This document shows, in pieces, positions 2,023-58,500 of a stretch of 64,000 bases of DNA. The translations under genes were made by a program, and so were the position numbers. Location of the stretch: the NCBI GenBank assembly GCA_964016885.1, contig OZ024743.1:81158001-81222000 (forward strand). Direction: 5' to 3'. The stretch comes from Eledone cirrhosa. Lineage: Eukaryota. Position 1 is the first letter of the stretch, and each line of letters begins with the position of its first letter. Below the pieces are notes generated by a model, which had not been told where the DNA came from, did no database searches, and saw nothing but the letters and a program-made list of their open reading frames with translations.

Positions 2023-2894
2023 TTACTATTGTTGTTATGTTATTATAACTACAATTACCTTAACTTACTAGTGAAAGTTGTTGATGTCAACATCTTGAAA
2101 TCTAAACTAGGGGCGGGAAATTGCTTTGTTGGTAAAAATGAATTTTTACCATTTCGTTGTATAAACTAATCATGACTGAAAATACTCTAAACTAAAAACT
2201 CTATTTTGTTTCCTCCTATGTAGAACAAGGTTTTCCTTTAAATCGTTTTCATATTACTATTTCTGATAGAAGTCCACAATAGCCGATTATCGATTCATTT
2301 CGCCTTCAGCTGCTCTGTCTAAACATTTATTCTAAATATTATCACAGCAAGATTCGAAAATCACCATAAAATGATTGAACAATGGAGACGATGTAGAGAA
2401 ATATCTTATTTTATGAACATTATCAACTTTGTTATTATCTGTGAGGATATGTCATTATTGTTGTTTATCCCCAGGCCAACACTGATTGAATCGAGTAAAA
2501 CCTGTGATTAAAACGTTCGAGCCATGATGAATCCGTCAATAAGTATTAAACATAGTATACCTAATATAATATTTCATCCTATATAATATTTCTCTTATCA
2601 AGCTTTGGAGATTTAGCTGTTAGTTTCAGCATTTCGACCATCCAACTACATTAACATATATATATAACATTTGGAGAAATGTTAGCTGTTATTTCTGGCA
2701 GGTTGAACATCCAACTACGTTATTCTCTGTATCCTTCATTGGTTAAAAGTTGGGAGGGATTTAGCTGCTATTTTAGCAAGTTCAGTATCCAAAACATAGA
2801 ATCTTACTTGGTGGTACTTCAAGAGTTTTTGGTTTACCTACCAGAAGTCCACAGGGAATTTGAGGTCCACTTGAGGTCTACATGACAAACAATG

Positions 2895-3270
2895 TCAGTT
2901 GAAGCGTCTTGCTCAGGAAGACAACGCGTCAACTGCCACCGGAGTCGAACCCACGACTTTACGACCACAAGCCCAAAGCCCTAATCACGAGATCATGTAC
3001 CTTGAAGATATATTTTGGTTTTGCGGGGTTATTATTGGACTTCCGTCTGATTCGACGATGAGTGTTTCAGTTGATTGATCAACGGAACAGCCCCTTTCGT
3101 GATATCACAGTTCAAATACTGAGTATTCTACAGACACGTGTACACTTACCTTAGTTCTCGTAGTGATTTAGTGTGACACAGTGTGTGACAAGGCTGACCC
3201 GTTGAATAACATATACAACACATTTTGTTCCAGCTTCATGGACAGATGAAACGTAGACAATAAAGTATCC
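2895..3270 (-). mobile_element. SINE family A fragments (head 2895-3000, body 3050-3270)
   Basis: Reverse complement of the family A head, core and body. Confidence 0.7.
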
Positions 3271-3452
3271 GGTTGATCCAGGAATCTAACAGCCTTCAAG
3301 ATAACTTTTAGTTTGGTGCATTATTTTGTATTGTGAGACGAATGTCCCATATAGAAGTAGGGAGAGTTAGATATCCACTATAATCTCTACTCAGTCTTTC
3401 CTAAGATAATAGAATATGGCTACAATTTATTGGTATCCTCGTCTGCTTTTAC

Positions 3453-3562
3453 CTTGTGGGACTTCCGGTATGATAGATGGTGAGTGTGGAAGGTAGAGCT
3501 TCCAGTACCTAGTCTCTCTACTTCCCTGTTCCGTATATCCGTTCTAGCTTTTTGGGTCATTG
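3453..3562 (-). other. Possible isolated coding exon of an unknown host gene
   Basis: Non-repetitive 110 bp with acceptor tcttcttatag| and donor AAG|gtaaaa; one open frame (MTQKARTDIRNREVERLGTGSSTFHTHHLSYRKSHK); no recognisable domain. Confidence 0.2.
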
Positions 3563-4140: not shown

Positions 4141-4348
4141 ATAGAAATGGCTTCTACAGGACTAGAACTGTTTCATTCGGTAGAAATCATCAGGAAGCCA
4201 GGTGAAATCATCAGGCTTCCTGATGATTTCTACCGAATCAAATAGTTCTAGTCCTGTAGAAGCCATTCTATATTAAATATTCATACTCTGCTTTGTATTC
4301 AGTACCTTACTTACTGTGGTTACCCCCGATTGAACCCGGGATAAACTT
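4141..4348 (+). mobile_element. Short hammerhead element (family H1): 5' inverted copy plus sense copy ending at (TA)n
   Basis: 4141-4199 is the reverse complement of 4214-4272; same family at 27172-27305 and 35206-35340. Confidence 0.85.
4149..4199 (-). ncRNA. Type I hammerhead ribozyme, intact core
   Basis: Minus strand: GGCTTC-CTGATGA-tttc tacc gaat-GAAA-CAG ttctagtc CTG-TA-GAAGCC; the + copy at 4214-4264 has GAAA mutated to CAAA. Confidence 0.85.
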
Positions 4349-4854
4349 ATATATATATATATATATATGTGCCCGCGCATGTGTGTGTGTGTGTATGTGA
4401 CAAAGAGAGATCTGTGAATATTATGCACAGACCAATCTATCTGAAAAGTGTCCATACAATTTCCATACACCCAATATTCATCACACAGCTCCATTAGAAT
4501 CATGGTCAATGATACACAGTCTGATCGAACAAGAGATCCTATGATTGAGAAATAAAATTTCTTAATCATAATTATAATTGTTAAAAAAAATTAATCATTT
4601 TTACATCGCTTCATCCAAATTTAGAAATTAGGTCGAAATTGAAAATGGAGATTTTCTCATAATTTTATCGATAATATTTCCATTCACCTCTCAAACTCTA
4701 CATTAAATATTTCAGTTAATGTTCAATGAAAAAAATGAAATTTACTTCATGAAAATATACAAGGAATTTAGATGTAAATATTTTACATCTGAAACATTGG
4801 AAATATTGAAAGCTTTTAGTTTTTAGTCATTATAAATGTATTTATTAAAACTCG

Positions 4855-19774: not shown

Positions 19775-21054
19775 CGCCTCCAACTCTGTTTTCCTTATAT
19801 TTTGCGATAATGCTTCTCATGGATTTCTGGAATAATTGTTCGCGTGGAATTTACATCAGGTATCGCATTTCAGGAAGGTTGTTCAACATCAAGCGCTTTG
19901 GTGCAATCACACAGATATTAACATCTATAATCCGAGAGTTTTTGTATGTAGTTGAGTGTGATTTTTTTGCACACTCAAAAAGTGACATGCAGCCTATTTT
20001 GAACTCTTTTTCTGAAGCTTGCAACGCTTGAAAAAGCCTGTTGTGATGTACCAGCCAGCACCTGGAAAAGAGTACACTACACCAAGTTTGTTCGTGTACG
20101 GAAAGAGGCTAAAAGTTGCTGACAAGTTTGTTTACCTTGGTAGTAAGCTGAACAATTCATGCACACTTGAGGATGAGATATCCTTAAGAATCAAGAAAGC
20201 CAGTGATGCTTTTGGACGGCTGCCTGAATGTTTATAGTCCAGACGAGGTACCGCCATTGAAACCAAGGTGAAAGTGTATCTGACTTGTGTCGTCTCCTCT
20301 TTGCTTTATGTGTGTGAAACGTGGGTCACATACAGAAAGCACCTCAAGGAACTGGAGAGATTTCACCAACAATCTCTTCGTAAGTTACTTGGGGTGCAAT
20401 GGAAAATGTTCGTCAGTGATTTGGAAGTTCTAGAACGGAGCAGGTGCATGACTATATAGATCTTTCGGCATCGGTTGAAGTGGTGCAGACATGTGGTCCG
20501 GATGTCTGATGATCGTATCCCAAACGAACTTCTCTACGGTCAACTGTGAGAAGGAAGCCGACCAGCACTGTGTCAGGAGCACCTTGGCTTGGGAATGTGG
20601 GAAGTGGAGACGTTTGATCAAGTCAGGTAGAGAACACTTTGAAACTTGTCGGAGGGAACACTTTACACTGAGAAGGAAGGTGAGAAAAAGGAAGGGTTCT
20701 GAACTACCTGCTTTTGAGCAACATATGGATTGCCAGCACTGTGGTCAAGTCTGCCTGAGCAAAGCTGGTTTGACTAGACACAAACAAAGTTATATGAGTA
20801 GACCTCATGTAGATTATGATCTGAACAGATGTAAGGAATGTGGCAAGGAATGTGCTAGCATGGGAGGGCTTAAAAGACACACGAGAACACACAGCCAGAA
20901 CCAAGCAGTGGAAAGTCCCAGAGGAGCCTACAGTTGCCATGTATGTGGCAGAGGGTGCACGTCTTGGCTGCGTTAAAGAGTCACATTCATGCCTCATATT
21001 TCTGAACATTTTATCAGGCGACGGCAATGCTCGAACACGAGTTTGCGGCCATCG

Positions 21055-21395: not shown

Positions 21396-21453
<58 letters not shown>

Positions 21454-22042
21454 TAGATAATTTAATATATCAACTAACATAAGCGCACAGATGCACGCCC
21501 ATGCCAGCAAATACACAGGTTATGTCATAGTACCTAGGTGGTTCAATAGTTGGAGTGAAAATTTAAGTAAGAAAAAAATTTTTTTTTTTTTTTTTTTTAT
21601 TTTTTTAAAAAAAATATTTTCTTATTTTACGTCCTTTATATTATTGTTCTGCATTCTCCTGCATTGAACCACCTAGGTACTATGACATAACCTGTGTATT
21701 TGCTGGCATGGGCGTGCATCTGTGCGCTTATGTTAGTTGATATATTAAATTATCTATATTTATCTCCAAATCACTGATTTGTCGAGCAAACTTGTCAAAA
21801 CCACTTCTAAAAAAATTTTTTTTGGGGTGTTAGTAGGCGTCAGTCATCTTACCATCCCATTCCTTCTAACTAGCCTCTGTGTCACGTGATTGATTCTTTA
21901 GAATCGGCCATTTGACTTGAAGCAGTGAGAATTTCGGTACATAGAATCCAGTCCTCGCAAGCTGTTCGATCTACCGAATTATTATTATTTTTATATGAGC
22001 CGCCAGTGTCTGCGCATTGCCTGGAGACTTAACTGAGAATAG

Positions 22043-22124
22043 ACTCCCTGATGACGCAATGAATTCTCGACAGTTGGATTACGTAACTGTCTTTATCCCA
22101 TTGCAGAAACTAATTAGTTGGAGT
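22043..22124 (+). ncRNA. Type I hammerhead ribozyme with extended stem II
   Basis: ACTCC-CTGATGA-cGCAATG..GACAGTT..AACTGTC..CATTGCa-GAAA-CTAATTAG-TT-GGAGT. Confidence 0.85.
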
Positions 22125-22612
22125 GAAAATTTAAGTAAGAAAAAAATTTTTTTTTTTTTTTTAAATTTAAAAAAAAAAAAAAAATATTTTCTTATTTTAC
22201 GTCCTTTATATTATTGTTCTGCATTCTCCTGCATTGAACCACCTAGGTACTATGACATAACCTGTGTATTTGCTGGCATGGGCGTGCATCTGTGCGCTTA
22301 TGTTAGTTGATATATTAAATTATCTATATTTATCTCCAAATCACTGATTTGTCGAGCAAACTTGTCAAAACCACTTCTAAAAAAATTTTTTTTGGGGTGT
22401 TAGTAGGCGTCAGTCATCTTACCATCCCATTCCTTCTAACTAGCCTCTGTGTCACGTGATTGATTCTTTAGAATCGGCCATTTGACTTGAAGCAGTGAGA
22501 ATTTCGGTACATAGAATCCAGTCCTCGCAAGCTGTTCGATCTACCGAATTATTATTATTTTTATATGAGCCGCCAGTGTCTGCGCATTGCCTGGAGACTT
22601 AACTGAGAATAG

Positions 22613-22694
22613 ACTCCCTGATGACGCAATGAATTCTCGACAGTTGGATTACGTAACTGTCTTTATCCCATTGCAGAAACTAATTAGTTGGAGT
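22613..22694 (+). ncRNA. Type I hammerhead ribozyme, copy 2
   Basis: Identical to 22043-22124, offset by 570. Confidence 0.85.
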
Positions 22695-23182
22695 GAAAAT
22701 TTAAGTAAGAAAAAAATTTTTTTTTTTTTTTTAAATTTAAAAAAAAAAAAAAAATATTTTCTTATTTTACGTCCTTTATATTATTGTTCTGCATTCTCCT
22801 GCATTGAACCACCTAGGTACTATGACATAACCTGTGTATTTGCTGGCATGGGCGTGCATCTGTGCGCTTATGTTAGTTGATATATTAAATTATCTATATT
22901 TATCTCCAAATCACTGATTTGTCGAGCAAACTTGTCAAAACCACTTCTAAAAAAATTTTTTTTGGGGTGTTAGTAGGCGTCAGTCATCTTACCATCCCAT
23001 TCCTTCTAACTAGCCTCTGTGTCACGTGATTGATTCTTTAGAATCGGCCATTTGACTTGAAGCAGTGAGAATTTCGGTACATAGAATCCAGTCCTCGCAA
23101 GCTGTTCGATCTACCGAATTATTATTATTTTTATATGAGCCGCCAGTGTCCGCGCATTGCCTGGAGACTTAACTGAGAATAG

Positions 23183-23264
23183 ATGCCCTGATGACGCAAT
23201 GAATTCTCGACAGTTGGATTACGTAACTGTCTTTATCCCATTGCAGAAACTAATTAGTTGGAGT
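23183..23264 (+). ncRNA. Type I hammerhead ribozyme, copy 3 (stem I variant ATGCC)
   Basis: Same core; two substitutions in stem I. Confidence 0.75.
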
Positions 23265-23339
23265 GAAAATTTAAGTAAGAAAAAAATTTTTTTTTTTTTT
23301 TTTAATTTTTTAAAAAAAAATATTTTCTTATTTTACGTC

Positions 23340-23373
<34 letters not shown>

Positions 23374-23696
23374 TTATATATATGTGAAATATAAACACCA
23401 AGGTCCAATACAAATGAAGATCTATCTATAGCTGAAAACTGTTACTACCAAAGGAAATTATGTTTCTATAATTTATTTGTGTTAAATGATTTATTTTTGT
23501 TGGTCAATGTAAACTTGTATCTTTAAAAAATAATTGGTGGGATTTCTCCTAGATGATAAATGTATATTTATAAGTGTGTGTGTGTGTTGGTGTATGTATG
23601 TATTAATGAAAAAAGAGGATGTACATCAAGGTCTGTGGTTTTATCTAGTCCCCGTTTTGTATAATTCTGAACTAGTCGTATTAATTAGTGTCAAAT

Positions 23697-24656: not shown

Positions 24657-24698
<42 letters not shown>

Positions 24699-24983
24699 CA
24701 AATAACGAAACGAAATCAAACTTCGTTTCGCTTCTAACTCACTTTTGTATGACTGACGCTTAAACAATTAAGTTAAAGTGTACATCTACATATGTATACG
24801 GAAGTATTAGTATGCATATAAATACACACATGTATACATATGTACATGTACTCAGCTTTTCACTAGACACTTTACAGTGAGTGTCAGCTAGTCTGTATGT
24901 AACCACACAGGCGGACCGGGTTTTAGAGTCATACGAGTTTTCAAGGAAACACATTTCCTCTATTCTCCAGAGGGCCAGACAGG

Positions 24984-25028
24984 AATATTGGACTAGTTTC
25001 GATGTTATTACATCTCATCAGCAATATT
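24984..25028 (-). ncRNA. Type I hammerhead ribozyme
   Basis: Minus strand AATATTG-CTGATGA-GATGT aata ACATC-GAAA-CTAG-TC-CAATATT. Confidence 0.92.
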
Positions 25029-25452
25029 TACCCATCTTCCGGCTTCTCTGGAGAATTGTAAAAGCACATATCGTTATATGCTTTTTCTATGAAAATTAGT
25101 AGTGGGTAGACCAATTTGCATAGAACGTGAGTCATTGTGCGCACCGGTTCAGCGGAAACGATAAAAACAAATAACGAAACGAAATCAAACTTCGTTTCGC
25201 TTCTAACTCACTTTTGTATGACTGACGCTTAAACAATTAAGTTAAAGTGTACATCTACATATGTATACGGAAGTATTAGTATGCATATAAATACACACAT
25301 GTATACATATGTACATGTACTCAGCTTTTCACTAGACACTTTACAGTGAGTGTCAGCTAGTCTGTATGTAACCACACAGGCGGACCGGGTTTTAGAGTCA
25401 TACGAGTTTTCAAGGAAACACATTTCCTCTATTCTCCAGAGGGCCAGACAGG

Positions 25453-25497
25453 AATATTGGACTAGTTTCGATGTTATTACATCTCATCAGCAATATT
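25453..25497 (-). ncRNA. Type I hammerhead ribozyme, copy 2
   Basis: Identical, offset by 469. Confidence 0.92.
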
Positions 25498-25841
25498 TAC
25501 CCATCTTCCGGCTTCTCTGGAGAATTGTAAAAGCACATATCGTTATATGCTTTTTCTATGAAAATTAGTAGTGGGTAGACCAATTTGCATAGAACGTGAG
25601 TCATTGTACGCACCGGTTCAGCGGAAACGATAAAAACAAATAACGAAACGAAATCAAACTTCGTTAGAAGCGAAACGAAGTTTGATTTCGTTTCGTTATT
25701 TGTTTTTATCGTTTCCGCTGAACCGGTGCGTACAATGACTCACGTTCTATGCAAATTGGTCTACCCACTACTAATTTTCATAGAAAAAGCATATAACGAT
25801 ATGTGCTTTTACAATTCTCCAGAGAAGCCGGAAGATGGGTA

Positions 25842-25886
25842 AATATTGCTGATGAGATGTAATAACATCGAAACTAGTCCAATATT
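25842..25886 (+). ncRNA. Type I hammerhead ribozyme, inverted copy
   Basis: AATATTG-CTGATGA-GATGT aata ACATC-GAAA-CTAG-TC-CAATATT; canonical GUC site. Confidence 0.92.
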
Positions 25887-26098
25887 CCTGTCTGGCCCTC
25901 TGGAGAATAGAGGAAATGTGTTTCCTTGAAAACTCGTATGACTCTAAAACCCGGTCCGCCTGTGTGGTTACATACAGACTAGCTGACACTCACTGTAAAG
26001 TGTCTAGTGAAAAGCTGAGTACATGTACATATGTATACATGTGTGTATTTATATGCATACTAATACTTCCGTATACATATGTAGATGTACACTTTAAC

Positions 26099-26159
<61 letters not shown>

Positions 26160-27879: not shown

Positions 27880-28290
27880 ATATATATATATATTTGGATT
27901 TAATGCTCTGAAATAGCGATATATATGTGAAGACAAACATAGAATATTCGAAAATATTCTGTATGTTTATAATAAACATTTTGAAGACCCAATCGCTATA
28001 GAATAGAATACGTCACGTATTACAATTTGAGATTCTCGAGAATCTCAAATTGTAATACGTGACGTATTCTATTCTATAGCGATTAGGTCTTCAAAATGTT
28101 TATTATAAACATACAGAATATTTTCGAATATTCTATGTTTGTCTTCACATATATATCGCTATTTCAGAGCATTAAATCCAAATTCTAATTTCCGCCGGAC
28201 CGGCTACCGCTCTATCAAACCAGTTCCTGTACACAGCTAAGTATTCTATAAGTCTCTAGCTGTGTCATTCTCGATAAAAGTATTGGATAT

Positions 28291-28333
28291 GTAATCCTGA
28301 TGATTTCTAACAAGAATGAAACGCGTAGATTAC
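28291..28333 (+). ncRNA. Minimal type I hammerhead ribozyme
   Basis: GTAATC-CTGATGA-tTTC taacaa GAAt-GAAA-CGCG-TA-GATTAC. Confidence 0.9.
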
Positions 28334-28602
28334 TTCCCTTACTTTTATCGAGAATCTCAAATTGTAATACGTGACGTATTCTATTCTATAGCGATTGGGT
28401 CTTCAAAATGTTTATTATAAACATACAGAATATTTTCGAATATTCTATGTTTGTCTTCACATATATATCGCTATTTCAGAGCATTAAATCCAAATTCTAA
28501 TTTCCGCCGGACCGGCTACCGCTCTATCAAACCAGTTCCTGTACACAGCTAAGTATTCTATAAGTCTCTAGCTGTGTCATTCTCGATAAAAGTATTGGAT
28601 AT

Positions 28603-28645
28603 GTAATCCTGATGATTTCTAACAAGAATGAAACGCGTAGATTAC
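28603..28645 (+). ncRNA. Minimal type I hammerhead ribozyme, copy 2
   Basis: Identical, offset by 312. Confidence 0.9.
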
Positions 28646-28767
28646 TTCCCTTACTTTTATCGAGAATCTCAAATTGTAATACGTGACGTATTCTATTCTA
28701 TAGCGATTGGGTCTTCAAAATGTTTATTATAAACATACAGAATATTTTCGAATATTCTATGTTTGTC

Positions 28768-28823
<56 letters not shown>

Positions 28824-36359: not shown

Positions 36360-38888
36360 CAAAGGAATATAAATTAAAATAATGTTACATAATATAATGA
36401 TCCATATATTAGTTTTTACTATTGTGCCTTTGTTTCATCAGCTGTCAGCCATAATCAAGCAGTACTCATCTGTCGAGGCTGCATTGTGTGAGATCTGCCT
36501 ATGGGTAACAAGATGGCTGCCAAAGGGCATATTTACCTTACTAATTAGAGGGTGGTTTCAGGGGAAGTAACTTCTCGAGAGAGAGATTGTGTGTATTTTA
36601 TAGTTATGTGCTAGTAATTAAATTATTTAATTGAGAGACAATGTAGGGGAGGTAACTTATAATTATCGAGTTGTTCATAGCAATTTAACTTATTAGCTAC
36701 AATTAGAGATGGGGCTACATGACTAAGTAGGGTCAAAAACTCTATTGGCGAAGGAATTAGCCCTTCGATGTTGACAGCTAATGGTTACCTCCGTTCTATC
36801 GTTAATTGGTAGAAGTCTTGATAGAGTTATGTAATATGCTTCCGTAACACAGAGATCACAAGATTTCCTTCGTCCATTGAACGGTTGGGCCCTAGCTACG
36901 ATATCCCATTTTAGTGAGTGTTGAACTTTGTTTAATTTAAGGTTTTTAATGAGCCTAGCTAGCGATGTCGAACATCTGTTGCTAGGGTCTCGGAAGGAAA
37001 AAGAGTGCGCGTTATAGCGTACCTTAAAAGGGTTAGAGATAGACCCGATATAAGAGCTGGTATTCGAAGCAGTCTCAACCGTGCACCTATAGACTATGTT
37101 GGGTCTCAGGCAGTGTCCATTTAATGGGCATGCATTAGGGTAACAGCAGTTGCAGTTGCTTGTGCGGTTAGTGAGAGTAGGGTTGTTTAACCTAAGCAGT
37201 TGGTCCGTGCTAGAAGGATTGGTAGGGTAGGTGTGCTACTAGAGTAATTATTGGTGTAGTGGTGTGGTGTATTTGATAGGAGTGGTGGTACCGCGGCGTG
37301 GGAGTTATAGTGTCTTAGCTTATGATGGTTACTGAACGCGATGTGGCTAGCTAGGTTAGGTGTAGTGGAGAATGAGATTTTAATGTTGTTTTTATTAAAG
37401 AGTTTGTAATATCTATGGTTAGGGGGGAAGTGTTTGGATAGGATAGAGAAGAAGCGATTGGGGATATTAGTGGTTAGATTAGATGAGAATGGTGGGTTAA
37501 GCCAGGTGGTATTTCTAGGCCTATTCCTTCTAGGAGTTCTAGTGGAGCTGGTAGGGGCCTTCCTAGGGTTATTATTACCTGGGGGTTTGTTATCTGTCAT
37601 CCCATTTCTCATTCCTATTCTAGGGTTGATTCTTAGTTTGCTACTAGGAGTGGCGAGCAGGCCGCTGCCACTATTAAAGTTCCCTGTATAGGTGCTGTTA
37701 CTGCTAAAATTCCGGCGAATCTGGCTATATGCAAAGGTATTTCTAGTTCTAGTGTTAAGTTTATTATGGTGAGTTGCTGTGTTATGGCATTTTGGTATGT
37801 AATAAATTGATTGTTTATAACAAGATTCAGAGAGAGCCTTATAATATTGTGCGTGGTTTATAAATATATCTTCATTTGCTGATAGCATTGAGATCCTATA
37901 GGAGATAGATTTGATTACTGCTCTGATGACTGCCGGTGGGTGGTTAGAGTGTGGGCTAATATATGTGAGTATTTCGCCTGGTTTATGGTAAGGGTTATAA
38001 AAGTAATTGTTGAGATCAAGGGTGACATCTAGGAAGTTTACTACTTTATGGTTCAGCTCGATGGTGATAGAGAGACCATTATTTTTGAAGAATCTATGAA
38101 ATTGTTTCTTAAGCAGATCGATTCCCCGATTAGTGCAATTGTGGACGGCAAATAGGGCGTCGTCCCTGTATATTCCACCTTGCATGAGTTGGATTTCGGC
38201 TCTGATGTTACGTAATAGGTAAAACCCAACTAAGCGGAGTCACTTGAGCCCATCGTAATGTCAAAGTTATCTGTTCTATCTTTTCTAGTCCAGAGTGCTC
38301 CGTTGAATTCAATGATAGTCTGCCTAGCCATGAGTATGATGTTAATCTCATTATTGGTTATGTCCGAGTTGGTGGTTGCTAGGGCTAGTGCTTTGTTTAG
38401 CAGTTCCGGGGTTATTGACACGTAATAGCTGTCTATATCAAATTGGATGAACCTCATAGATTGCTTGGACCTTAGATCGGAGAACCATCTGATGACTTGG
38501 CCGGTGTTGGACCATAACTTGTAGGTGGTATCATCCCGTAGCCCAGGGATTATCCTATCAAGGATGTTCTTACTGATGCGGCCCAGGTCAGATGTGGTTG
38601 GGCTTATGAGTCTAATGGATGGGTTCTCTATAAAGTTTGGCTTGTGGTCCTTGAAAGAGAACCTTGGGGATGTTGGTACATAAGGGTGGGTAAATCTATC
38701 CAAATGCAAGTCCTTAACCAAAGCCTGGGCTTTTCGTTTAAGTACGTTTACACTGGAGGGTGTAGTTTTTTAATAGTTTTTGTTGAGTTCTTTAAGAAGG
38801 AAAGAGTTGTAAATTTCAGGAGTCATGGTGTATAGATTTTTAGTTTTGTCAGACATAACATGTAAGAGGTTGCTATCCTTAAATTTTT
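36360..38888 (-). mobile_element. 5'-truncated Penelope-like retroelement (RT + GIY-YIG; Naiad-like)
   Basis: SDKTKNLY, SFKDHKPNF..IRLISP, FIQFDIDSYY, DITMGS, IYRDD, VNFLDVTLDL, SNHPP, WLNPPFS; truncated at (TA)n. Confidence 0.93.
36723..38885 (-). pseudogene. Penelope-like RT/GIY-YIG ORF disrupted by a stop and frameshifts
   Basis: ORF pieces 38230-38721 and 37187-38185, plus an unlisted frame NCNCCYPNACPLNGHCL..IVYRC..YIGS..FKVRYNAH..STSL..KW..CDLC..E..N.R.E..CQH ending at 36723. Confidence 0.92.
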
Positions 38889-39809: not shown

Positions 39810-42800
39810 ACTAACAGCACCAACAGCGCCACCGACACCGCAACCACCATCACAACAACTACCACAACCACCATCACAACCACCACCACAACCACCACCA
39901 AAACCACCATCACAACCACCACCACAACCACCACCAAAACCACCATCACAACCACCACCAAAACCACCATCACAACCACAATCACAACCACCATCACAAC
40001 CACCACCACAACCACCACCAAAACCACCATCACAACCAGCACCACAACCACCACCAAAACCACCATCACAACCACCATCACAACCACCACCACAACAACT
40101 ACCACAACCACCATCACAACCACCACCGCAACCACCACCAAAACCACCATCACAACCACCACCACAACCACCACCAAAACCACCATCACAACCACAACCA
40201 CAACAACTACCACAACCACCATCACAACCACCACCACAACCACCACCAAAACCACCATCACAACCAGCACCACAACCACCACCAGAACCACCATCACAAC
40301 CACCACCACAACCACCACCACGACCGCCATCACAACCACCACCACAACCACCATCACAACCACCACCACAACCACCACCAAAACCACCATCACAACCAGC
40401 ACCACAACCACCACCAAAACCACCATCACAACCACCATCACAACCACCACCACAACAACTACCACAACCACCATCACAACCACCACCGCAACCACCACCA
40501 AAACCACCATCACAACCACCACCACAACCACCACCAAAACCACCATCACAACCACAACCACAACAACTACCACAACCACCATCACAACCACCACCACAAC
40601 CACCACCAAAACCACCATCACAACCAGCACCACAACCACCACCAGAACCACCATCACAACCACCACCACAACCACCACCACAACCACCACCACGACCGCC
40701 ATCACAACCACCACCACAACCACCATCACAACCACCACCACAACCACCACCAAAACCACCATCACAACCAGCACCACAACCACCACCAGAACCACCATCA
40801 CAACCACCACCACAACCACCACCACGACCGCCATCACAACCACCACCACAACCACCATCACAACCACCACCACAACCACCACCAAAACCACCACCAGAAC
40901 CACCATCACAACCACCACCACAACCACCACCACAACCACCACCACGACCGCCATCACAACCACCACCACAACCACCATCACAACCACCACCACAACCACC
41001 ACCAAAACCACCATCACAACCAGCACCACAACCACCACCAGAACCACCATCACAACCACCACCAAAACCACCACCACAACCACCACCACGACCGCCATCA
41101 CAACCATCACCACAACCACCACCACAACCACCATCACAACCAGCACCAAAACCACCATCACAACCAGCACCACAACCACCACCAAGACCACCATCACAAC
41201 CAGCAACACAACCACCATCACAACCACCACCACAACCACCACCAAAACCACCATCACAACCAGCACCAAAACCACCATCACAACCAGCACCACAACCACC
41301 ACCAAGACCACCATCACAACCAGCACCACAACCACCACCAGAACCACCATCACAACCACCACCACAACCACCACCACGACCACCATCACAACCACCACCA
41401 CACCACCATCACAACCACCACCACACCACCATCACAACCACCACCACAACCACACCAAAACCACCATCACAACCAGCAACACAACCACCACCACAATCAC
41501 CATAACAACCACCACCACAACCACCACCAAAACCACCATCACAACCACCACCACAACCACCACCAAAACCACCATCACAACCATCACCACAAGCACCACC
41601 AGAACCATCATCACAACCACCACCACAACCACCACCAAAACCACCATCACAACTAGCAACACAACCACCACCACAACCACCATAACAACCACCACCAAAA
41701 CCACCATCACAACCAGCACCAAAACCAGCACCAAAACCACCACCACAACCACCACCAAAACCACCATCACAACCAGCACCACAACCACCACCAAAACCAC
41801 CACCACAACCACCACCAAAACCACCATCACAACCAACACCAAAACCACCATCACAACTAGCAACACAACCACCACCACAACCACCATCACAACCACCACC
41901 ACAACCACAATCACCACCGCAACCACCATCACAACCACCACCACAACCACCACCAAAACAACCATCACAACCAGCAACACAACCAGCACCACAAGCACCA
42001 CCAGAACCATCATCACAACCACCACCACACCACCATCACAACCACCACCACACCACCATCACATCCACCACCACACCACCATCACAACCACCACCACAAC
42101 CACCACCAAAACCACCATCACAACCAGCAACACAACCACCACCACAATCACCATAACAACCACCACCACAACCACCACCAAAACCACCATCACAACCAGT
42201 ACCACAACCACCACCAAAACCACCATCACAACCAGCACCACAACCACCACCAAAACCACCATCACAACCACCACCACAACCACCACCACGACCATCATCA
42301 CAACCACCACCACAACCACTACCACAACCACCACCGCACCCACCACCACAACCACAATCACCACCGCAACCACCACCACAACCACCACAACAACTACCAC
42401 AACCACCATCACAACCACCACCACAACCACCACCAAAACCACCATCACAACCACCACCACAACCACCACCAAAACCACCATCACAACCACCACCACAACC
42501 ACCACCACGACCACCATCACAACCACCACCACGACCACCATCACAATCACCACCACATCCACCACCACAACCACCACCGCAACCACCACCACAACCACCA
42601 CCACAACCACCACAACCACAACCACAACCACCACCACAACCACCACCACAACCACCAGCACAACCACCACCACAACCCCCACCAAAACCACCATCACAAC
42701 CACCAGCACAACCACCAGCACAACCACCATCACAGCCACCACCGCAACCACCATCACAACAACCACCACAACCACCACCACAACCACCACCGCAACCAAC

Positions 42801-43766
42801 ATCACAACAACCACCACAACCACCACAACCACCACTACAACCACCACCACAACCACCACCGTAACCACCATCACAACAACCACCACAATCACCACAACCA
42901 CCACCCCAACCACCACTACAAACACCACCACAACCACCACCGTAACCACCATCACAACAACCACCACAACCACCACAACCACCACCGCAACCACCACCAC
43001 AACCACCACCACAACCACCACAACCACCACAACCACCACAACCACCACCGCAACCACCATCACAACATCCACCACAACCACCACCACAACCATCATCACA
43101 ACCACCAGCACAACCACCACCACCACAACCACAACAACCACCACAACCACCACCACAACAACCAACACAACCACCACAACCACCACCACCACCACCACAG
43201 CCACCACCACCACCACCACCACCACAACCACCACCACAACCACCACCACAACCACCACCACCACAACTACCACAACCACCACAACCACCACCACCACCAC
43301 CACCACTAGAACTACCACCACAAGAACAACAAGCACCAACTCAATAAGCCCACCGCCACCACCACCAACTCTAACACTCCACCCTATAACCAATAGGTCA
43401 AGAAACCCAAGCTGTCACCAATATCTCTTTTGTCATCATCACCTCATAGTTTCAACACCGCCACCAGCACCACCAACAATAAGAACAACAACAACAACAC
43501 CAACAACAATAACAACAACAATAACACTACCAACAACAACAATAACCAACAACAATAACAACAACGCCACCACCACCAACAATAAGAACAACAACACCAA
43601 CACCAACAACAATAACAACAACACTAACAACACAAACAACAGCAACAATAATAACACCAACAACAATAACAACAACAACAACAATAACAACACCAACAAC
43701 ACCAACTACAAAAACAATACCAACACCAACAACAATAACAACAACACCAACTACAACAACAACACT

Positions 43767-44140: not shown

Positions 44141-44544
44141 ACATTAAATATATGTCAAAGTTAACATGTTTGCTGTCAGTAATTGCATATTTGCCATGGT
44201 TACCATAGCAGCTGCGGAGTTTACACGGTGGTGGTAATGGTGGTAGTGGTGGTGATATGGTGGTGGTGGTGTAGGTGGAGTGATGGTGGTGGAGTGATGG
44301 TGGTGGAGTGATGGTGGTGGTGGTGGTGGTGATGGTGGTGTAGGTGGTGGTGTGGTGGAGGTGGTGGTGGTGGTGGTGTTGGTGGTGGTGGTGGTGGTAT
44401 AGTGGTGTTGGTATGGTGGAGGTGGTGTTGTTGGTGGTGGTGGTGGTATGGTGGTGTTGGTGTTGTTAGTGGTGGAGGTATGGTGGTGGAGTGGTGGTTG
44501 TGGTGATGGGGGTGTTGTACCATTAACGTAATACACAGACAACT

Positions 44545-45830
44545 CCAATATGACAAGTCAGTATGACACAACTCCAGTATGACACAAGTCAGTATGACAC
44601 AACTCCAGTATGACACAACTCCAGTATGACACAAGTCAGTATGACACAAGTCAGTATGACACAAGTCAATATGACACAACTCCAGTATGACACAACTCCA
44701 GTATGACACAAGTCAGTATGACACAAGTCAGTATGACACAAGTCAATATGACACAAGTCAGTATGACACAACTCCTGTATGACACAAGTCAGTATGACAC
44801 AACTCCAGTATGACACAAGTCAGTATGACACAAGTCAGTATGACACAACTCCAGTATGACACAAGTCAGTATGACACAACTCCAGTATGACACAAGTCAG
44901 TATGACACAAGTCAGTATGACACAACTCCAGTATGACACAATTCCAGTATCACACAAGTCAGTATGACACAAGTCAGTATGACACAACTCCAGTATCACA
45001 CAAGTCAGTATGACACAAGTCAATATGACACAAGTCAGTATGACACAACTCCTGTATGACACAAGTCAGTATGACACAACTCCAGTATGACACAAGTCAG
45101 TATGACACAAGTCAGTATGACACAACTCCAGTATGACACAAGTCAGTATGACACAACTCCAGTATGACACAAGTCAGTATGACACAAGTCAGTATGACAC
45201 AACTCCAGTATGACACAATTCCAGTATCACACAAGTCAGTATGACACAAGTCAGTATGACACAACTCCAGTATCACACAAGTCAGTATGACACAAGTCAA
45301 TATGACACAAGTCAGTATGACACAACTCCTGTATGACACAAGTCAGTATGACACAACTCCAGTATGACACAAGTCAGTATGACACAACTCCTGTATGACA
45401 CAACTCCAGTATGACACAAGTCAGTATGACACAAGTCAGTATGACACAACTCCAGTATGACACAATTCCAGTATCACACAAGTCAGTATGACACAACTCC
45501 TGTATGACACAATTCCAGTATGACACAAGTCAGTATGACAAAAGTCAGTATGACACAAGTTAGTATGACATAAGTCAGTATGATACAACTCCTGTATGAC
45601 ACAATTCCAGTATGACAAAAGTCAGTATGACAAAAGTCAGTATGACAAAAGTCAGTATGACACAAGTCAGTATGACACAAGTCAGTATGACACAAGTCAA
45701 TATGACACAACTCCTGTATGACACAACTCCAGTATGACACAAGTCAGTATGACACAACTCCAGTATGACACAACTCCAGTATGACACAAGTCAGTATGAC
45801 AAAAGTCAGTATGACACAAGTTAGTATGAC
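44545..45830. repeat. 15/16-bp two-monomer minisatellite (AGTATGACACAAGTC / AGTATGACACAACTCC) with a 277-bp higher-order duplication
   Basis: Direct repeats; identical ORFs at 44835 and 45112. Confidence 0.95.
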
Positions 45831-45864
45831 AAGTCTAGTTCTTAAGATTACATCTCATATCTAC

Positions 45865-46286
45865 CAGCTGAGTGACAAGGTGAAGTAAAGTGTCTTGCTC
45901 AAGCTGAGTGATGTGGAACAAGGTGAAGTTAAGTGTCTTGCTCAAGCTGAGTGATGTGGAACAAGGTGAAGTTAAGTGTCTTGCTCAAGCTGAGTGATGT
46001 GGAACAAGGTGAAGTTAAGTGTCTTGCTCAAGCTGAGTGGGAACAAGGTGAAGTAAAGTGTTTTGCTCAAGCTTAGTGATGTGGAACAAGGTGAAGTAAA
46101 GTGTCTTGCTCAAGCTGAGTAATGTGGAACAAGGTGAAGTAAAGTGTCTTGCTCAAGCTGAGTGATGTGGAACAAGGTGAAGTTAAGTGTCTTGCTCAAG
46201 CTGAGTGATGTGGAACAAGGTGAAGTAAAGTGTCTTGCTCAAGCTGAGTGGTGTGGAACAAGGTGAAGTAAAGTGTCTTGCTCAAG
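45865..46286. repeat. 43-bp minisatellite derived from the SINE A core, about 10 copies
   Basis: GCTGAGTGATGTGGAACAAGGTGAAGTAAAGTGTCTTGCTCAA. Confidence 0.93.
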
Positions 46287-52245: not shown

Positions 52246-52542
52246 GTGTGCAGTGTAAAACATGTACTATAACAATGAACAATAAGTAAATTATACAAAA
52301 TTGCACACGTATATTTACTTATTAAGCTCACCCCACTACTACCACCAGCACCATCACCACCACTACCATCCACCCCATTACTACCCCACCACCACCACCC
52401 CACTACTATACCACCACCACCCCACAAATACCCAAGACCCCCCCCCCACCACCACCACCACCACAACCTATCACTCAATCACACATCCAATCGGAATCAT
52501 TCACTCATTTCTTCACACCCAACAATCCCCACAATCACTTTA

Positions 52543-55500
52543 GTCCTCACTCACTCCTTCTCTTAACACATTGGTTACCATTTGGTCGCCAGTCGTTCCT
52601 TCTCTTAACACATTGGTTACCATTTGGTCCCCAGTCGTTCCTTCTCTCAACACATGGGTTACCATTTGGTCCTCACTCATTCCTTCTCTCAACACATTGG
52701 TTACCATTTGGTCCTCACTCATTCCTTCTCTCAACATATTGGTTACCATTTGGTCCTCAGTCGTTCCTTCTCTCAACACATTGGTTACCATTTGGTCCTC
52801 ACTCTTTCCTTCTCTCAACACATTGGTTACCATTTGGTCCTCACTCATTCCTTCTCTCAACACATTGGTTACCATTTGGTCCTCAGACGTTCCTTCTCTC
52901 AACACATTGTTTACCATTTCATCCCCAGTCGTTCCTTCTCTCAACATATTGGTTACCATTTGATCCCAGTCGTTCCTTCTCTCAACACATTGGTTACCAT
53001 TTGGTCCTCAGTCGTTCCTTCTCTCAACACATTGGTTACCATTTGGTCCTCACTCATTCCTTCTCTCAACACATTGGTTACCATTTGATCCCCAGTCGTT
53101 CCTTCTCTCAACACATTGGTTACCATTTGGTCCTCTGTCGTTTCTTCTCTCAACACATTGGTTACCATTTGGTCCTCTGTCGTTTCTTCTCTCAACACAT
53201 TGGTTAGCATTTGGACCCCAGTTGTTCATTCTCTCAACACATTGGTTACCATTTGGTCCCCAGTCGTTCCTTCTCTCAACATATTGGTTACCATTTGGTC
53301 CGTCGTCGTTCATTCTCTCAACACATTGGTTACCATTTGGTCCCCAGTCGTTCCATCTCTCAACACATTGGTTACCATTTGGTCCCCAGTCGTTCCTTCT
53401 CTCAACATATTGGTTACCATTTGGTCCGTAGTCGTTCCTTCTCTCAACACATTGGTTACCATTTGGTTCCCAGTCGTTCCTTCTCTCAACACATTGGTTA
53501 TCATTTGGTCCCCAGTCAATCCTTCTCTCAACACATTGGTTACCATTTGGTCCCCAGTCGTTCCTTCTCACCAACACATTGGTTACCATTTGGTCCCCAG
53601 TCGTTCCTTCTCTCAACTCATTGGTTACCATTTGGTCGCCAGTCGTTCCTTCGATCAACACATTGGTTACCATTTGGTTGCAAGTCGTTCCTTCTCTTAA
53701 CACTATGGTTACCATTTGGTCCTCACTCATTACTTCTCTCAACACATTGTTTACCATTTGGCCCTCACTCCCTCCTTCTCTCAACACATTGGTTACCATT
53801 TGCTCCTCACTCATTCAATCTCTCAACACATTGGTTACCAATTGGTCCCAGTCGTTGCTTCTCTCAACACATTGGTTACCATTTGGTCCTCACTCATTCC
53901 TTCTCTCAACACATTGGTTACCATTTGGTTCCCAGTCGTTCTTTCTCTCAACACATTAGTTACCATTTGGTCCTCAGTCGTTCCTTCTCTCTACACATTG
54001 TTTACCATTTGGTCCCCAGTCGTTCCTTCTCCCAACATATTGGTTACCATTTGGTCCTCAGTCGTTCCTCCTCTCAACACATTGGTTACCATTTGGTCCT
54101 CAGTCGTTCCTTCTCTCAACACATTGGTTACCATTTGGTCCTCACTCATTCCTTCTCTCAACACATTGGTTACCATTTGGTCCTCACTCACTCCGTCTCT
54201 CAACACATTGGTTACCATTTAGTCCCCAGTCGTTCCTTCTCTCAACTCATTGGTTACCATTTATTCCCCAGTCGTTCCTTCTCTCAACACATTGGTTACC
54301 ATTTGGTCCCCAGTCGTTCTTTCTCCCAACATATTGGTTACCATTTGGTCCTCACTCATTCCTTCTCTCAACACATTGGTTACCATTTGGTCCCCAGTCG
54401 TTCCTTCTCCCAACATATTGGTTACCATTTGGTCCTCACTCATTCCTTCTCTCAACACATTGGTTACTATTTGGTCCGCAGTCGTTCCTTCTCTCAACAC
54501 ATTGGTTACCATTTGGTCCTCAGTCGTTCCATCTCTCAACACATTGGTTACCATTTGGTCCGCAGTCGTTCCTTCTATCAACACATTGGTTACCATTTGT
54601 TCCTCACTCATTCCTTCTCTCAACACATTGGTTACCATTTGGTCCTCAGTCGTTCCATCTCTCAACACATTGGTTACCATTTGGTCCGCAGTCGTTCTTT
54701 CTATCAACACATTGGTTACCATTTGGTCCCCAGTCGTTCCTTCTCTTAACACACATTGGTTACCATTTGGTCCTCACTCACTCCTTCTCTCAACACATTG
54801 GTTACCATTTGGTCCCCAGTCGTTCCTTCTCTCGACTCATTGGTTACCATATGGTTGCCAGTCGTTCCTTCTCTCAACTCATTGGTTACCATTCTGTTGC
54901 CAGTCATTCCTTCTCTCAACTCATTGGTTACCATTTGGTCCGCAGTCGTTCCTTCTCTCAATACACTGGTTACCATTTGGTCCCCAGTCGTTCCTTCTCT
55001 CAACACATTGGTTACCATTTGGTCCCCTGTCGTTCCATCTCTCAATACACTGGTTACCATTTGGTCCTCACTCATTCCTTCTCTCAACACATTGGTTACC
55101 ATTTGCTCCCCAGTGGTTCCTTCTCTCAACACATTGGTTACCATTTGGTCCCCAGTCTTTCCTTCTCTCAACACATTGGTTACCATTTGGTCCCCAGTCG
55201 TTCCTTCTCTCAACTCATTGGTTACCATTTGGTCGCCAGTCGTTCCTTCGATCAACACATTGGTTACCATTTGGTTGCAAGTCGTTCCTTCTCTTAACAC
55301 TATGGTTACCATTTGGTCCTCACTCATTACTTCTCTCAACACATTGTTTACCATTTGGCCCTCACTCCCTCCTTCTCTCAACACATTGGTTACCATTTGC
55401 TCCTCACTCATTCAATCTCTCAACACATTGGTTACCAATTGGTCCCAGTCGTTGCTTCTCTCAACACATTGGTTACCATTTGGTCCTCACTCATTCCTTC

Positions 55501-58500
55501 TCTCAACACATTGGTTACCATTTGGTTCCCAGTCGTTCTTTCTCTCAACACATTAGTTACCATTTGGTCCTCAGTCGTTCCTTCTCTCTACACATTGTTT
55601 ACCATTTGGTCCCCAGTCGTTCCTTCTCCCAACATATTGGTTACCATTTGGTCCTCAGTCGTTCCTCCTCTCAACACATTGGTTACCATTTGGTCCTCAG
55701 TCGTTCCTTCTCTCAACACATTGGTTACCATTTGGTCCTCACTCATTCCTTCTCTCAACACATTGGTTACCATTTGGTCCTCACTCACTCCGTCTCTCAA
55801 CACATTGGTTACCATTTAGTCCCCAGTCGTTCCTTCTCTCAACTCATTGGTTACCATTTATTCCCCAGTCGTTCCTTCTCTCAACACATTGGTTACCATT
55901 TGGTCCCCAGTCGTTCTTTCTCCCAACATATTGGTTACCATTTGGTCCTCACTCATTCCTTCTCTCAACACATTGGTTACCATTTGGTCCCCAGTCGTTC
56001 CTTCTCCCAACATATTGGTTACCATTTGGTCCTCACTCATTCCTTCTCTCAACACATTGGTTACTATTTGGTCCGCAGTCGTTCCTTCTCTCAACACATT
56101 GGTTACCATTTGGTCCTCAGTCGTTCCATCTCTCAACACATTGGTTACCATTTGGTCCGCAGTCGTTCCTTCTATCAACACATTGGTTACCATTTGTTCC
56201 TCACTCATTCCTTCTCTCAACACATTGGTTACCATTTGGTCCTCAGTCGTTCCATCTCTCAACACATTGGTTACCATTTGGTCCGCAGTCGTTCTTTCTA
56301 TCAACACATTGGTTACCATTTGGTCCCCAGTCGTTCCTTCTCTTAACACACATTGGTTACCATTTGGTCCTCACTCACTCCTTCTCTCAACACATTGGTT
56401 ACCATTTGGTCCCCAGTCGTTCCTTCTCTCGACTCATTGGTTACCATATGGTTGCCAGTCGTTCCTTCTCTCAACTCATTGGTTACCATTTTGTTGCCAG
56501 TCATTCCTTCTCTCAACTCATTGGTTACCATTTGGTCCGCAGTCGTTCCTTCTCTCAATACACTGGTTACCATTTGGTCCCCAGTCGTTCCTTCTCTCAA
56601 CACATTGGTTACCATTTGGTCCCCTGTCGTTCCTTCTCTCAATACACTGGTTACCATTTGGTCCTCACTCATTCCTTCTCTCAACACATTGGTTACCATT
56701 TGCTCCCCAGTGGTTCCTTCTCTCAACACATTGGTTACCATTTGGTCCCCAGTCTTTCCTTCTCTCAACATATTGGTTACCATTTGGTCCCCACTCATTC
56801 CTTCTCTCAACACATTGGTTACCATTTGGTCCCCAGTCGTTCCTTCTCTCAACACATTGGTTACCATTTGGTCCCCAGTCGTTTCTTCTCTCAACACATT
56901 GGTTACCATTTGGTCCTCAGTCGTTCCTTCTCTCAACACATTGGTTACCATTTGGTCCTCACTAACTCCTTCTCTCAACACATTGGTTACCATTTGGTCC
57001 CCAGTCGTTCCTTCTCTCAACTCATTGGTTACCATTTGGTTGCCAGTCGTTCCTTCTCTCAACTCATTGGTTACCATTTTGTTGCCAGTCGTTCCTCCTC
57101 TCAACTCATTGGTTACCATTTGGTCCCCAGTCGTTCCTTCTCTCAACACATTGGTTACCATTTGGTCCTCAGTCGTTCCTTCTCTCAAAACATTGGTTAC
57201 CATTTGGTCCTCAGTCGTTCCTTCTCTCAACACATTGGTTACCATTTGGTTCTCAGTCGTTCCTTCTCTCAACACATTGGTTACCATTTGGTCCCCAGTC
57301 GTTCCTTCTCTCAACTCATTGGTTACCATTTGGTTGCCAGTCGTTCCTTCTCTCAACTCATTGGTTACCATTTGGTTGCCAGTCGTTCCTTCTCTCAACA
57401 CATTGGTTACCATTTGGTCCTCAGTCGTTCCTTCTCTCAAAACATTGGTTACCATTTGGTCCTCAGTCGTTCCTTCTCTCAACACATTGGTTACCATTTG
57501 GTTCTCAGTCGTTCCTTCTCTCAACACATTGGTTACCATTTGGTCCCCAGTCGTTCCTTCTCTCAACTCATTGGTTACCATTTTGTTGCCAGTCGTTCCT
57601 CTTCTCAACTCATTGGTTACCATTTGGTCCTCACTCCTTCCTTCTCTCAACACATTGGTTACCATTTGGTCCCCAGTCGTTCCTTCTCTCTACACATTGG
57701 TTACCATTTGGTCCCCAGTCGTTCCTTCTCTCAACATATTGGTTACCATTTGGTCCTCACTCATTCCTTCTCTCAACACATTGGTTACTATTTGGTCCGC
57801 AGTCGTTCCTTCTCTCAACACATTGGTTACCATTTGGTCCTCAGTCGTTCCATCTCTCACCACATTGGTTACCATTTGGTCCGCAGTCGTTCCTTCTATC
57901 AACACATTGGTTACCATTTGTTCCTCACTCATTCCTTCTCTCAACACATTGGTTACCATTTGGTCCTCACTCATTCCTTCTCTCAACACATTAGTTACCA
58001 TTTGGTCCCCAGTCGTTCCTTCTCTCAACACATTGGTTACCATTTGGTTCCCAGTCGTTTCTTCTCTCAACACATTGGTTACCATTTGATCCTCACTCAT
58101 TCCTTCTCTCAACACATTGGTTACCATTTGATACCCAGTCGTTCCTTCTCTCAACATATTGGTTACCATTTGGTCCTCACTCATTCCTCCTCTCAACACA
58201 TTGGTTACCATTTGGTCCCCAGTCAATCCTTCTCTCAACACATTGTTACCATTTGGTCCCCAGTCGTTCCTTCTCACCAACACATTGGTTACCATTTGGT
58301 CCCCAGTCGTTCCTTCTCTCAACTCATTGGTTACCATTTGGTCGCCAGTCGTTCCTTCGATCAACACATTGGTTACCATTTGGTTGCAAGTCGTTCCTTC
58401 TCTTAACACTATGGTTACCATTTGGTCCTCACTCATTACTTCTCTCAACACATTGTTTACCATTTGGCCCTCACTCCCTCCTTCTCTCAACACATTGGTT

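Follow-up and report, generated by a model that had tools for sequence, protein, structure and literature searches.

Non-LTR retrozymes are non-coding tandem repeats with hammerhead ribozymes that are expressed as circular RNAs, and the enzymes of Penelope-like elements (PLEs) have been proposed as their mobilisers (Cervera and de la Pena 2020, PMC7229834). In the available part of that paper the ribozyme-made circles range from 150 to over 1000 nt, and circle-templated reverse transcription (RT) by PLE enzymes is put forward as a hypothesis for retrozyme spread. The available text of Li, Clavereau and Pollet (2026; bioRxiv 10.64898/2026.07.22.740005) proposes local tandem growth, and it reports that eight of nine Xenopus retrozyme dimers stayed uncleaved in vitro. 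For the tandem and inverted structures of PLEs, the accessible portion of Craig et al. (2021, PMC8557442) calls the origin open and suggests that the tail is made by endonuclease cleavage or resolution. The PLE protein of Anolis Poseidon (PAc), a predicted dimer, cuts and extends both strands and starts reverse transcription at two internal RNA sites that lie downstream of the hammerhead and bound the tail (Frangieh et al. 2024, PMC11167929). Its main substrate is uncleaved RNA, hammerhead cleavage being unneeded, and both strands use the same start sites, with priming described as non-homologous to the cut DNA. PLE-type hammerheads have a palindromic helix III and work as dimers, as the available part of Cervera and de la Pena (2014, PMC4209133) describes them.

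Here we analyse a stretch of 64,000 nt (below, the window) of Eledone cirrhosa contig OZ024743.1 (assembly GCA_964016885.1, positions 81,158,001 to 81,222,000), from a genome of 3.0 Gb that is rich in microsatellites. An original prediction, made from the letters of this stretch alone, had pointed to a tandem array that starts at its own ribozyme cleavage site, and we follow it up by comparison with other loci of the same family.

Anatomy of the array

The array at 21453–23347 is a real and very young non-LTR retrozyme insertion (Table 1). Unit coordinates (u) are counted from u1, the G after the predicted cut in unit 2. As predicted, units of about 570 nt stand in tandem (568, 570 and 570 nt, then an 88-nt tail piece) behind a short inverted piece, and the sense and inverted arms overlap by 1 nt, a shared T at 21547, at the inner junction. 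The predicted GUU/G cuts have their first G at 21552, 22120, 22690 and 23260. Leaving aside the A/T homopolymer block, no difference separates units 1 and 2, and three changes set unit 3 apart, one at u462 and two in stem I at u495 and u496. Of the three hammerhead motifs two are intact; multi-unit arms are found in most of the parsed family loci. The array has a G+C content of 35% and no stop-free frame of at least 120 aa across 21453–23347, and it is not classed as an autonomous PLE because no RT or GIY-YIG ORF was found in the element. What corresponds to the "tail" of the element is the interval between start sites A and B. Both array ends sit in (TA)n, where the limits of a target-site duplication cannot be drawn.

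Table 1. Positions in the window of the parts of the insertion and of its target.
Feature	Positions	Strand	Remarks
Left (TA)n target tract	21399–21452	.	4-nt slippage duplication at junction
Inverted arm, 95 nt	21453–21547	-	Reverse complement of u114–u208; outer end is start site B
Sense arm, 1,801 nt (3.16 units)	21547–23347	+	Inner end u566/567, outer end start site A
4 nt ahead of first predicted cut	21548–21551	+	Absent from a cleaved linear template
Hammerhead 1, type I	22043–22124	+	Predicted cut 22119/22120
A/T-rich hairpin, u14–78	22133–22197	+	Hypervariable among units; one copy per unit; just upstream of site A
Start site B, u206–209, unit 2	22325–22328	+	About 118 nt downstream of site A
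Hammerhead 2, type I	22613–22694	+	Identical to hammerhead 1; predicted cut 22689/22690
Hammerhead 3, type I	23183–23264	+	Stem I weakened by two substitutions at 23184–23185
Start site A (u88–92, at 23343–23347), merging into right (TA)n target tract	23343–23383	.	

In the A/T hairpin the units of one locus differ by local swaps of A and T runs, which accumulate far faster than changes in the rest of the unit. Four B arms (at 21449–21456 in the window and in loci L031, L051 and L110) have a 4-nt duplication at the target junction, which suggests primer slippage at initiation. Just upstream of the array, a frame at 20479–20976 (+) contains a C2H2 zinc finger (Pfam PF00096), and we take this frame to resemble the 3' end of an RTE-type LINE.

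The hammerhead ribozyme

One type I hammerhead closes each full unit. In hammerhead 1, stem I pairs 22043–22047 with 22120–22124 (5 bp), and the core CUGAUGA (22048–22054) is followed by an extra C (22055). Stem II consists of two helices, IIa (6 bp, 22056–22061 with 22099–22104) and IIb (8 bp, 22069–22076 with 22084–22091), separated by a 7x7 internal loop, after which come an extra A (22105), GAAA, a 10-nt palindrome (22109–22118) and the GUU triplet. The second stem II helix, the palindromic stem III and the GUU triplet had all been foreseen and are all present. Of the two stems that were singled out, the two-helix stem II is borne out by covariation; the palindrome of stem III is a usual feature among the type I hammerheads of animals (PMC4209133).

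The hammerhead region folds better than its own shuffles (z = -2.87). For covariation we aligned 28 variants, hand-picked for diversity among 66 distinct ones, in all of which CUGAUGA, GAAA and GUU are invariant, part of the core having been fixed by the search patterns. Helix cells are paired at 92.8% with 72 double changes, against 37–46% in slid controls, and 0 of 500 shuffles reach the observed pairing, a count that is no probability since the sequences are related. Pair 22-72 of stem IIa occurs in all four Watson–Crick types and six of the eight pairs of stem IIb show double changes, while stem III never varies. Because its helices covary across the variants, the long two-helix stem II is a conserved structure. 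It adds a hammerhead variant that Rfam misses: at the gathering score there was no match in the window, probably due to the long stem II, and at E values up to 10 only MIR841, snoR144 and mir-297 were returned, hairpin look-alikes that all score far under the gathering score. Exact patterns found 1,547 + 6,664 non-overlapping family motifs genome-wide (at least 8,200) and 0 with the reversed controls.

Folding energies predict that the monomer is locked and the dimer active. For a single hammerhead the locked fold, in which the core pairs with the palindrome, is calculated at -21.6 kcal/mol against -19.1 for the active fold, and the same pairing recurs in the consensus fold; a double hammerhead comes to -50.2 against -43.2 kcal/mol for two locked copies. 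GUU is a permitted NUH cleavage site but a slower one.

Fixed outer ends and the pairing of sites A and B

The family DNA search gave 365 candidates, 40 of which were scored; 39 loci were fetched from these, and 80 further loci from the first 100 of 256 exact site-A junctions. With the window this makes 120 loci, of which 116 were parsed after four had been dropped: L132 and L092, which belong to older subfamilies, L094, which like these two is A+B by eye, and L125, which has A and a non-standard end near A. Older neighbour copies in L037, L052 and L081 were left out, twelve ends close to the A/T hairpin were placed manually, and 10 short arms were likewise parsed manually. Locus L121 has the same two-armed insertion twice (558–1439 and 2592–3473, 2,034 nt apart) with identical junctions, either a later segmental duplication or an assembly duplication, and it was counted once.

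The 116 parsed loci comprise 83 two-armed loci, their arms joined head to head, and 33 one-armed loci. The outer ends of the arms fall at two internal sites, A (u88–92) and B (u206–209), and those of sister subfamilies fall at the same two places. (TA)n adjoins 177 of 180 A or B ends, and no recurrent arm end is found at the longer ATATAT stretch at u191–197. Among the 75 two-armed loci with both outer ends visible (the eight others ran off the fetched stretch), 73 are A+B, one is A+A and one is A+other, and the tail is found at exactly one end in the same 73, which is the anatomy of a PLE-type insertion. The rule holds in the set that was not chosen by end, where 22 of 23 two-armed loci are A+B (P = 3e-6) and the one-armed loci divide 6:4 between A and B, and eight later-fetched loci add 6 of 6 A+B. 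By eye, there was no B facing B within 10 kb among the first 100 of 800 B junctions listed, and one pair of A facing A among the first 100 site-A junctions listed. The original prediction overlooked both the fixed position of the outer ends and the nature of the inverted piece, which is a second arm primed separately.

Evidence for a single template per insertion

At u497 the two arms carry the same C/T allele in all 56 loci compared (22 C, 34 T; P = 2e-16), and none of the 86 multi-copy loci mixes the alleles. Each of twelve rare variants is present in every one of the 3–9 copies at its locus; 11 span both arms, and five are confined to their one locus. Both arms have the same template stop in the same pass at 8 of 73 loci, against 1.5 by permutation (P = 1e-4). 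The inverted arm in the window covers no informative variant, and the single-template reading there is taken from the family. The arms might also share alleles because a single source locus is active in a cell, and not because a single molecule was copied. Copying of one arm from the other by DNA synthesis was ruled out because in 15 of 73 loci neither arm contains the other. The inner junctions show microhomology of 1–5 nt at 38 of 48 flush cases (21.7 expected; P = 1.5e-6) and inserted bases in 13 of 61.

Two further observations concern copying errors and foreign sequence. Single-unit substitutions on the sense strand of the parsed loci include 23 G>A and 10 C>T (P = 0.014), mostly non-CpG, and this skew possibly reflects deamination of single-stranded cDNA. 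Locus L087 has a 234-nt foreign piece (4451–4684) between its two arms and L152 (1300–1420) a sister-subfamily retrozyme arm fused to the 5' piece of a PLE family; template switches are possible in both.

Circular or linear template

The proposal that the template was a ribozyme-bearing RNA, probably circular, copied in several rounds is supported by the family as a whole. Arm lengths fit an exponential with a mean of 854 nt (n = 126, KS P = 0.68), the lengths of the two arms of a locus show no correlation, and the longest noted arm, of about 11 units, has no variant outside homopolymer tracts. Of 394 copies, 390 have an exact unit junction at the cut and none has an indel there, which argues against jumps between linear monomers.

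A linear multimer would give nearly the same picture. Here the two-site Penelope-type insertion would be the same, with an uncleaved linear multimer from homogeneous source arrays as the template and no circle in the step. Hammerhead cleavage is dispensable for lizard PLE insertion in vitro (PMC11167929), the lone ribozyme is predicted to be mostly locked, and the fixed ends, the A+B pairing, the allele sharing and the exact junctions are all expected from such a template, nearly the same patterns arising if the source array is homogeneous and young. It should, however, leave variants that are common to both arms in part of the units, and only 1 such variant is seen where 10–20 are expected, if source arrays were as mutated as today's. 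Single-unit variants almost never recur between loci (67 of 69 do not), and u528T and u418A, each single-unit in one array, fill all units of another on the same background. Moreover, the twenty haplotype patterns among 92 loci need repeated monomer bottlenecks, and without another amplifier the arrays could only shrink between generations. We therefore regard a linear multimer as unlikely, and the sequence patterns favour a monomer-length circle as the template.

The start of the array and the predicted cut

Under the original prediction, the 5' end of a ribozyme-cleaved RNA set the start of the array. The sense arm does begin close to the first predicted cut, and the offset of about 5 nt given in that prediction is confirmed at 4–5 nt; these bases, 4 in number or 5 if the shared T is counted, lie upstream of the cut, however, and the proposed start at the cleavage site fails because RNA cleaved at GUU lacks them. 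Nor does the start of an array mark cleavage in the family as a rule. The original prediction had named beforehand, as refuting it, random starts of the other copies, and the 5' ends of these copies lie at scattered positions across the unit: of 197 inner ends, five are at u1, 15 at u2–20 and 32 in the hairpin, with the remainder across the unit. The 192 ends away from the cut include that of the window locus, and the cut site is read through about 373 times in the 116 loci.

The five arms that end exactly at the predicted cut compare with 0.38 expected if drop-off is constant (13-fold, P = 5e-5), although the five include two from a single locus, one that is ambiguous by 2 nt and one with a substitution. 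They lend indirect support, at the level of sequence, to cleavage after GUU, and like the ends at u2–65, which have about 1.7–1.9 times their expected frequency, they speak for a cleaved RNA template. At u560–570, on the other hand, the 4 ends match the 4.1 expected. A special stop 4–7 nt upstream of the cut (the window, L056 and L137 at 4–5 nt, L108 at 7) was considered and is not significant; the bin u564–567, which holds the window locus and was chosen after the fact, has 4 ends against 1.5 expected (P = 0.06). Cleaved RNA is thus probably used now and then, not as a rule, and does not explain the array in the window, for which a start set by the cleaved 5' end is very improbable. The headline of the original prediction is wrong and its rolling-copy idea probably right.

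Growth after insertion and assembly

Arrays might also have grown locally as satellites, by unequal exchange after insertion of a monomer, along the lines proposed in the available part of bioRxiv 2026.07.22.740005. In the window, u462T is common to units 1 and 2, and one hairpin variant is the same in units 2 and 3, as a single local duplication would leave them; one window unit was therefore probably duplicated locally after insertion. Within-arm partial variants occur at three loci (the window, L047 and L060), and there has been some later local copying. It is minor, with 4 partial against 71 single-unit variants, and local growth is also at odds with arm lengths that are exponential from 30 nt to several kb and with loci where both inverted arms are multimeric and share private variants. 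As the origin of the arrays it is a most unlikely explanation. Single-copy variants stand at 0.05% per base, in agreement with the recent insertion that had been proposed. This very young family is a countable genomic record that separates insertion models, and the record reads as one arm per start site, one template per insertion, and arrays mostly born at insertion.

That the assembler or polishing made the inverted arm or the uniformity within loci is extremely unlikely: inverted repeats and homopolymers are difficult to assemble, and none of the listed contigs from runs X1–X6 (where family sequence is present, X1 being dominated by other variants) bridges the inner junction of the window, but the same anatomy is found at 119 other loci, the inner junctions differ from locus to locus and bear biological microhomology, hairpin length and single variants still differ among the units of one locus, and three unrelated families, each by one example, repeat the A+B arrangement.

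Proposed insertion mechanism

We consider it likely, with a probability of roughly 70%, that the retrozyme was inserted by a Penelope-like RT-endonuclease that copied one, probably circular, RNA from both target ends. The fixed ends, A+B pairing, allele sharing, junctions, lengths, microhomology and covariation are observed in the loci themselves, and from such sequence evidence we infer the cleavage, the circularity and the enzyme. A multi-unit transcript would cleave after GUU through a double hammerhead, in which two palindromes form one 10-bp stem III, and the cleaved monomer would be ligated into a circle, where the lone ribozyme is predicted to be mostly in the locked fold. The enzyme would cut both target strands in (TA)n, and cDNA would start at site A from one target end and at site B, 118 nt apart, from the other, with priming at both sites aided by 4–5 nt of UA/TA pairing. 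Both polymerases would then run round the template, dropping off at an about constant rate (mean about 850 nt); alternatively, both may halt together where the RNA is broken or cleaved. Finally, the two cDNA ends would join head to head through 1–5 nt of microhomology, and a one-armed insertion would result if only one end extends.

Whether PLE retrotransposition in general is twin rolling-circle reverse transcription, in which one RT-endonuclease dimer would keep hold of the two ends of a cut TA repeat and load them on two fixed sites of one circular RNA before the cDNAs are joined head to head, is a proposition to which we give even odds. If it is true, twin copying would account for three features of PLEs (tandem pseudo-LTRs, an inverted copy and a tail on one side) as well as for the multimeric arrays of animal retrozymes; the GUU hammerhead, gated by dimerisation, would produce the circle and afterwards remain locked through several copying rounds. 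The retrozyme would be a natural case of two-ended, circle-templated DNA insertion, and the family, which specifies a 560-nt RNA, the two sites where copying starts and a target, makes the PLE insertion mechanism directly testable in vitro.

Candidate PLE partners and other repeats

The genome has abundant young PLE copies whose ORFs encode RT and GIY-YIG domains. One young PLE family, with a GIY-YIG domain above the Pfam cut-off and an RT at E = 2.5e-4, below it, adjoins the retrozyme at L045, L070, L100 and L102. It was rejected as a proven partner: its UTR is full of TA repeats, no sequence is common to the family and the unit, and a relaxed scan of the family turned up no convincing hammerhead. 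Several copies (L100 1539–5200, L102 3259–4450 and L222–L233) have open frames of at least 796 aa, and the family has a long UTR built of microsatellites and a 36-nt tail. No autonomous element with the hammerhead or tail of the retrozyme was seen among the fetched loci and the first 100 matches per pattern; 40 matches to a short-stem-II pattern look like deletion derivatives and not like a PLE pLTR. The fusion in L152 to the 5' piece of a PLE family is the only chimeric junction found and a single hint of a link to that family. Two arms with two different outer ends are found in one example each of three families unrelated to one another, in L102 (tail about 36 nt), in L071 (about 60 nt) and at 24692–26109 in the window (about 80 nt).

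The window holds further repeats. At 24692–26109 lies a second, unrelated hammerhead repeat with a 469-nt unit, GUC and a short palindromic stem III, in which a 2.1-unit arm and a 0.9-unit inverted arm sit in (TA)n and about 80 nt of the unit separates their outer ends. A third (window 28036–28780 and L116 4388–5800) has a 312-nt unit and GUA, with at least 5 units in L116, and hammerhead-like motifs of at least two more families occur at 4193, 4220, 27260, 35212 and 29992. Rfam detected none of the hammerhead-like motifs in the window; the genome is rich in such motifs. On the reverse strand, 36723–38769 is a frameshifted ORF remnant that by eye resembles a Penelope-like RT and endonuclease, with no Pfam match at E = 0.001. 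Long satellites with periods of 42, 12/15, 15/77 and 43 nt lie at 52398–64000, 39836–43367 and 44539–46286.

Comparison with known systems

As the available sources describe animal non-LTR retrozymes, the family resembles them in its AT-rich non-coding tandem units with a type I hammerhead and short palindromic helix III in each, in its dispersed copies and in the presence of PLEs in the same genome. Within the same limits it differs from them in its unit of about 545–578 nt, outside their typical range of 150–450 nt, and in its 6-bp stem II with a second covarying helix, its GUU triplet and the extra A before G12. Two-armed insertions, fixed RT starts and allele sharing are not described in the available parts of PMC7229834 and bioRxiv 2026.07.22.740005. 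The pairing rule and single-template evidence were not found in the mostly open-access text that was searched, though published figures and supplements may contain the pairing, and PMC9977147 and PMC11722881 held nothing further for comparison.

With PLE-type hammerheads, as far as the available part of PMC4209133 describes them, the ribozyme shares the extra nucleotide between A9 and G10.1, the conserved G10.1–C11.1 pair, a longer helix II and a short helix I; it departs from that description in its two-helix stem II with a conserved pyrimidine-rich internal loop, the invariant extra A at the 3' base of stem II and GUU. In insertion anatomy it is like the endonuclease-bearing PLEs of the available part of Craig et al. 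(2021, PMC8557442), which have 5'-truncated partial tandems, an inverted 5'-truncated copy, a tail often at one end only and (TA)n targets. Unlike those, it has no ORF, a tail of about 118 rather than 30–40 nt, and up to 11 units per arm.

Like PAc, the retrozyme has two internal starts that bound the tail downstream of the hammerhead, and an AT-rich target. In PAc, assayed on a linear template, both strands use the same sites, whereas the two ends of the retrozyme almost always use different sites, with 4–5 nt of target homology, and its template was likely one circular RNA. Retrozymes, PLE tails and the use of two start sites are already published, and new in this retrozyme are the long unit, the two-helix stem II and GUU.

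The insertions also recall twin priming by L1, in which two target ends prime on one RNA and an inverted 5' piece is joined by microhomology. In L1, however, the position of the second priming site is variable and the two arms are free of overlap, whereas the retrozyme has two fixed sites and overlapping arms, both of which can be longer than the template itself.
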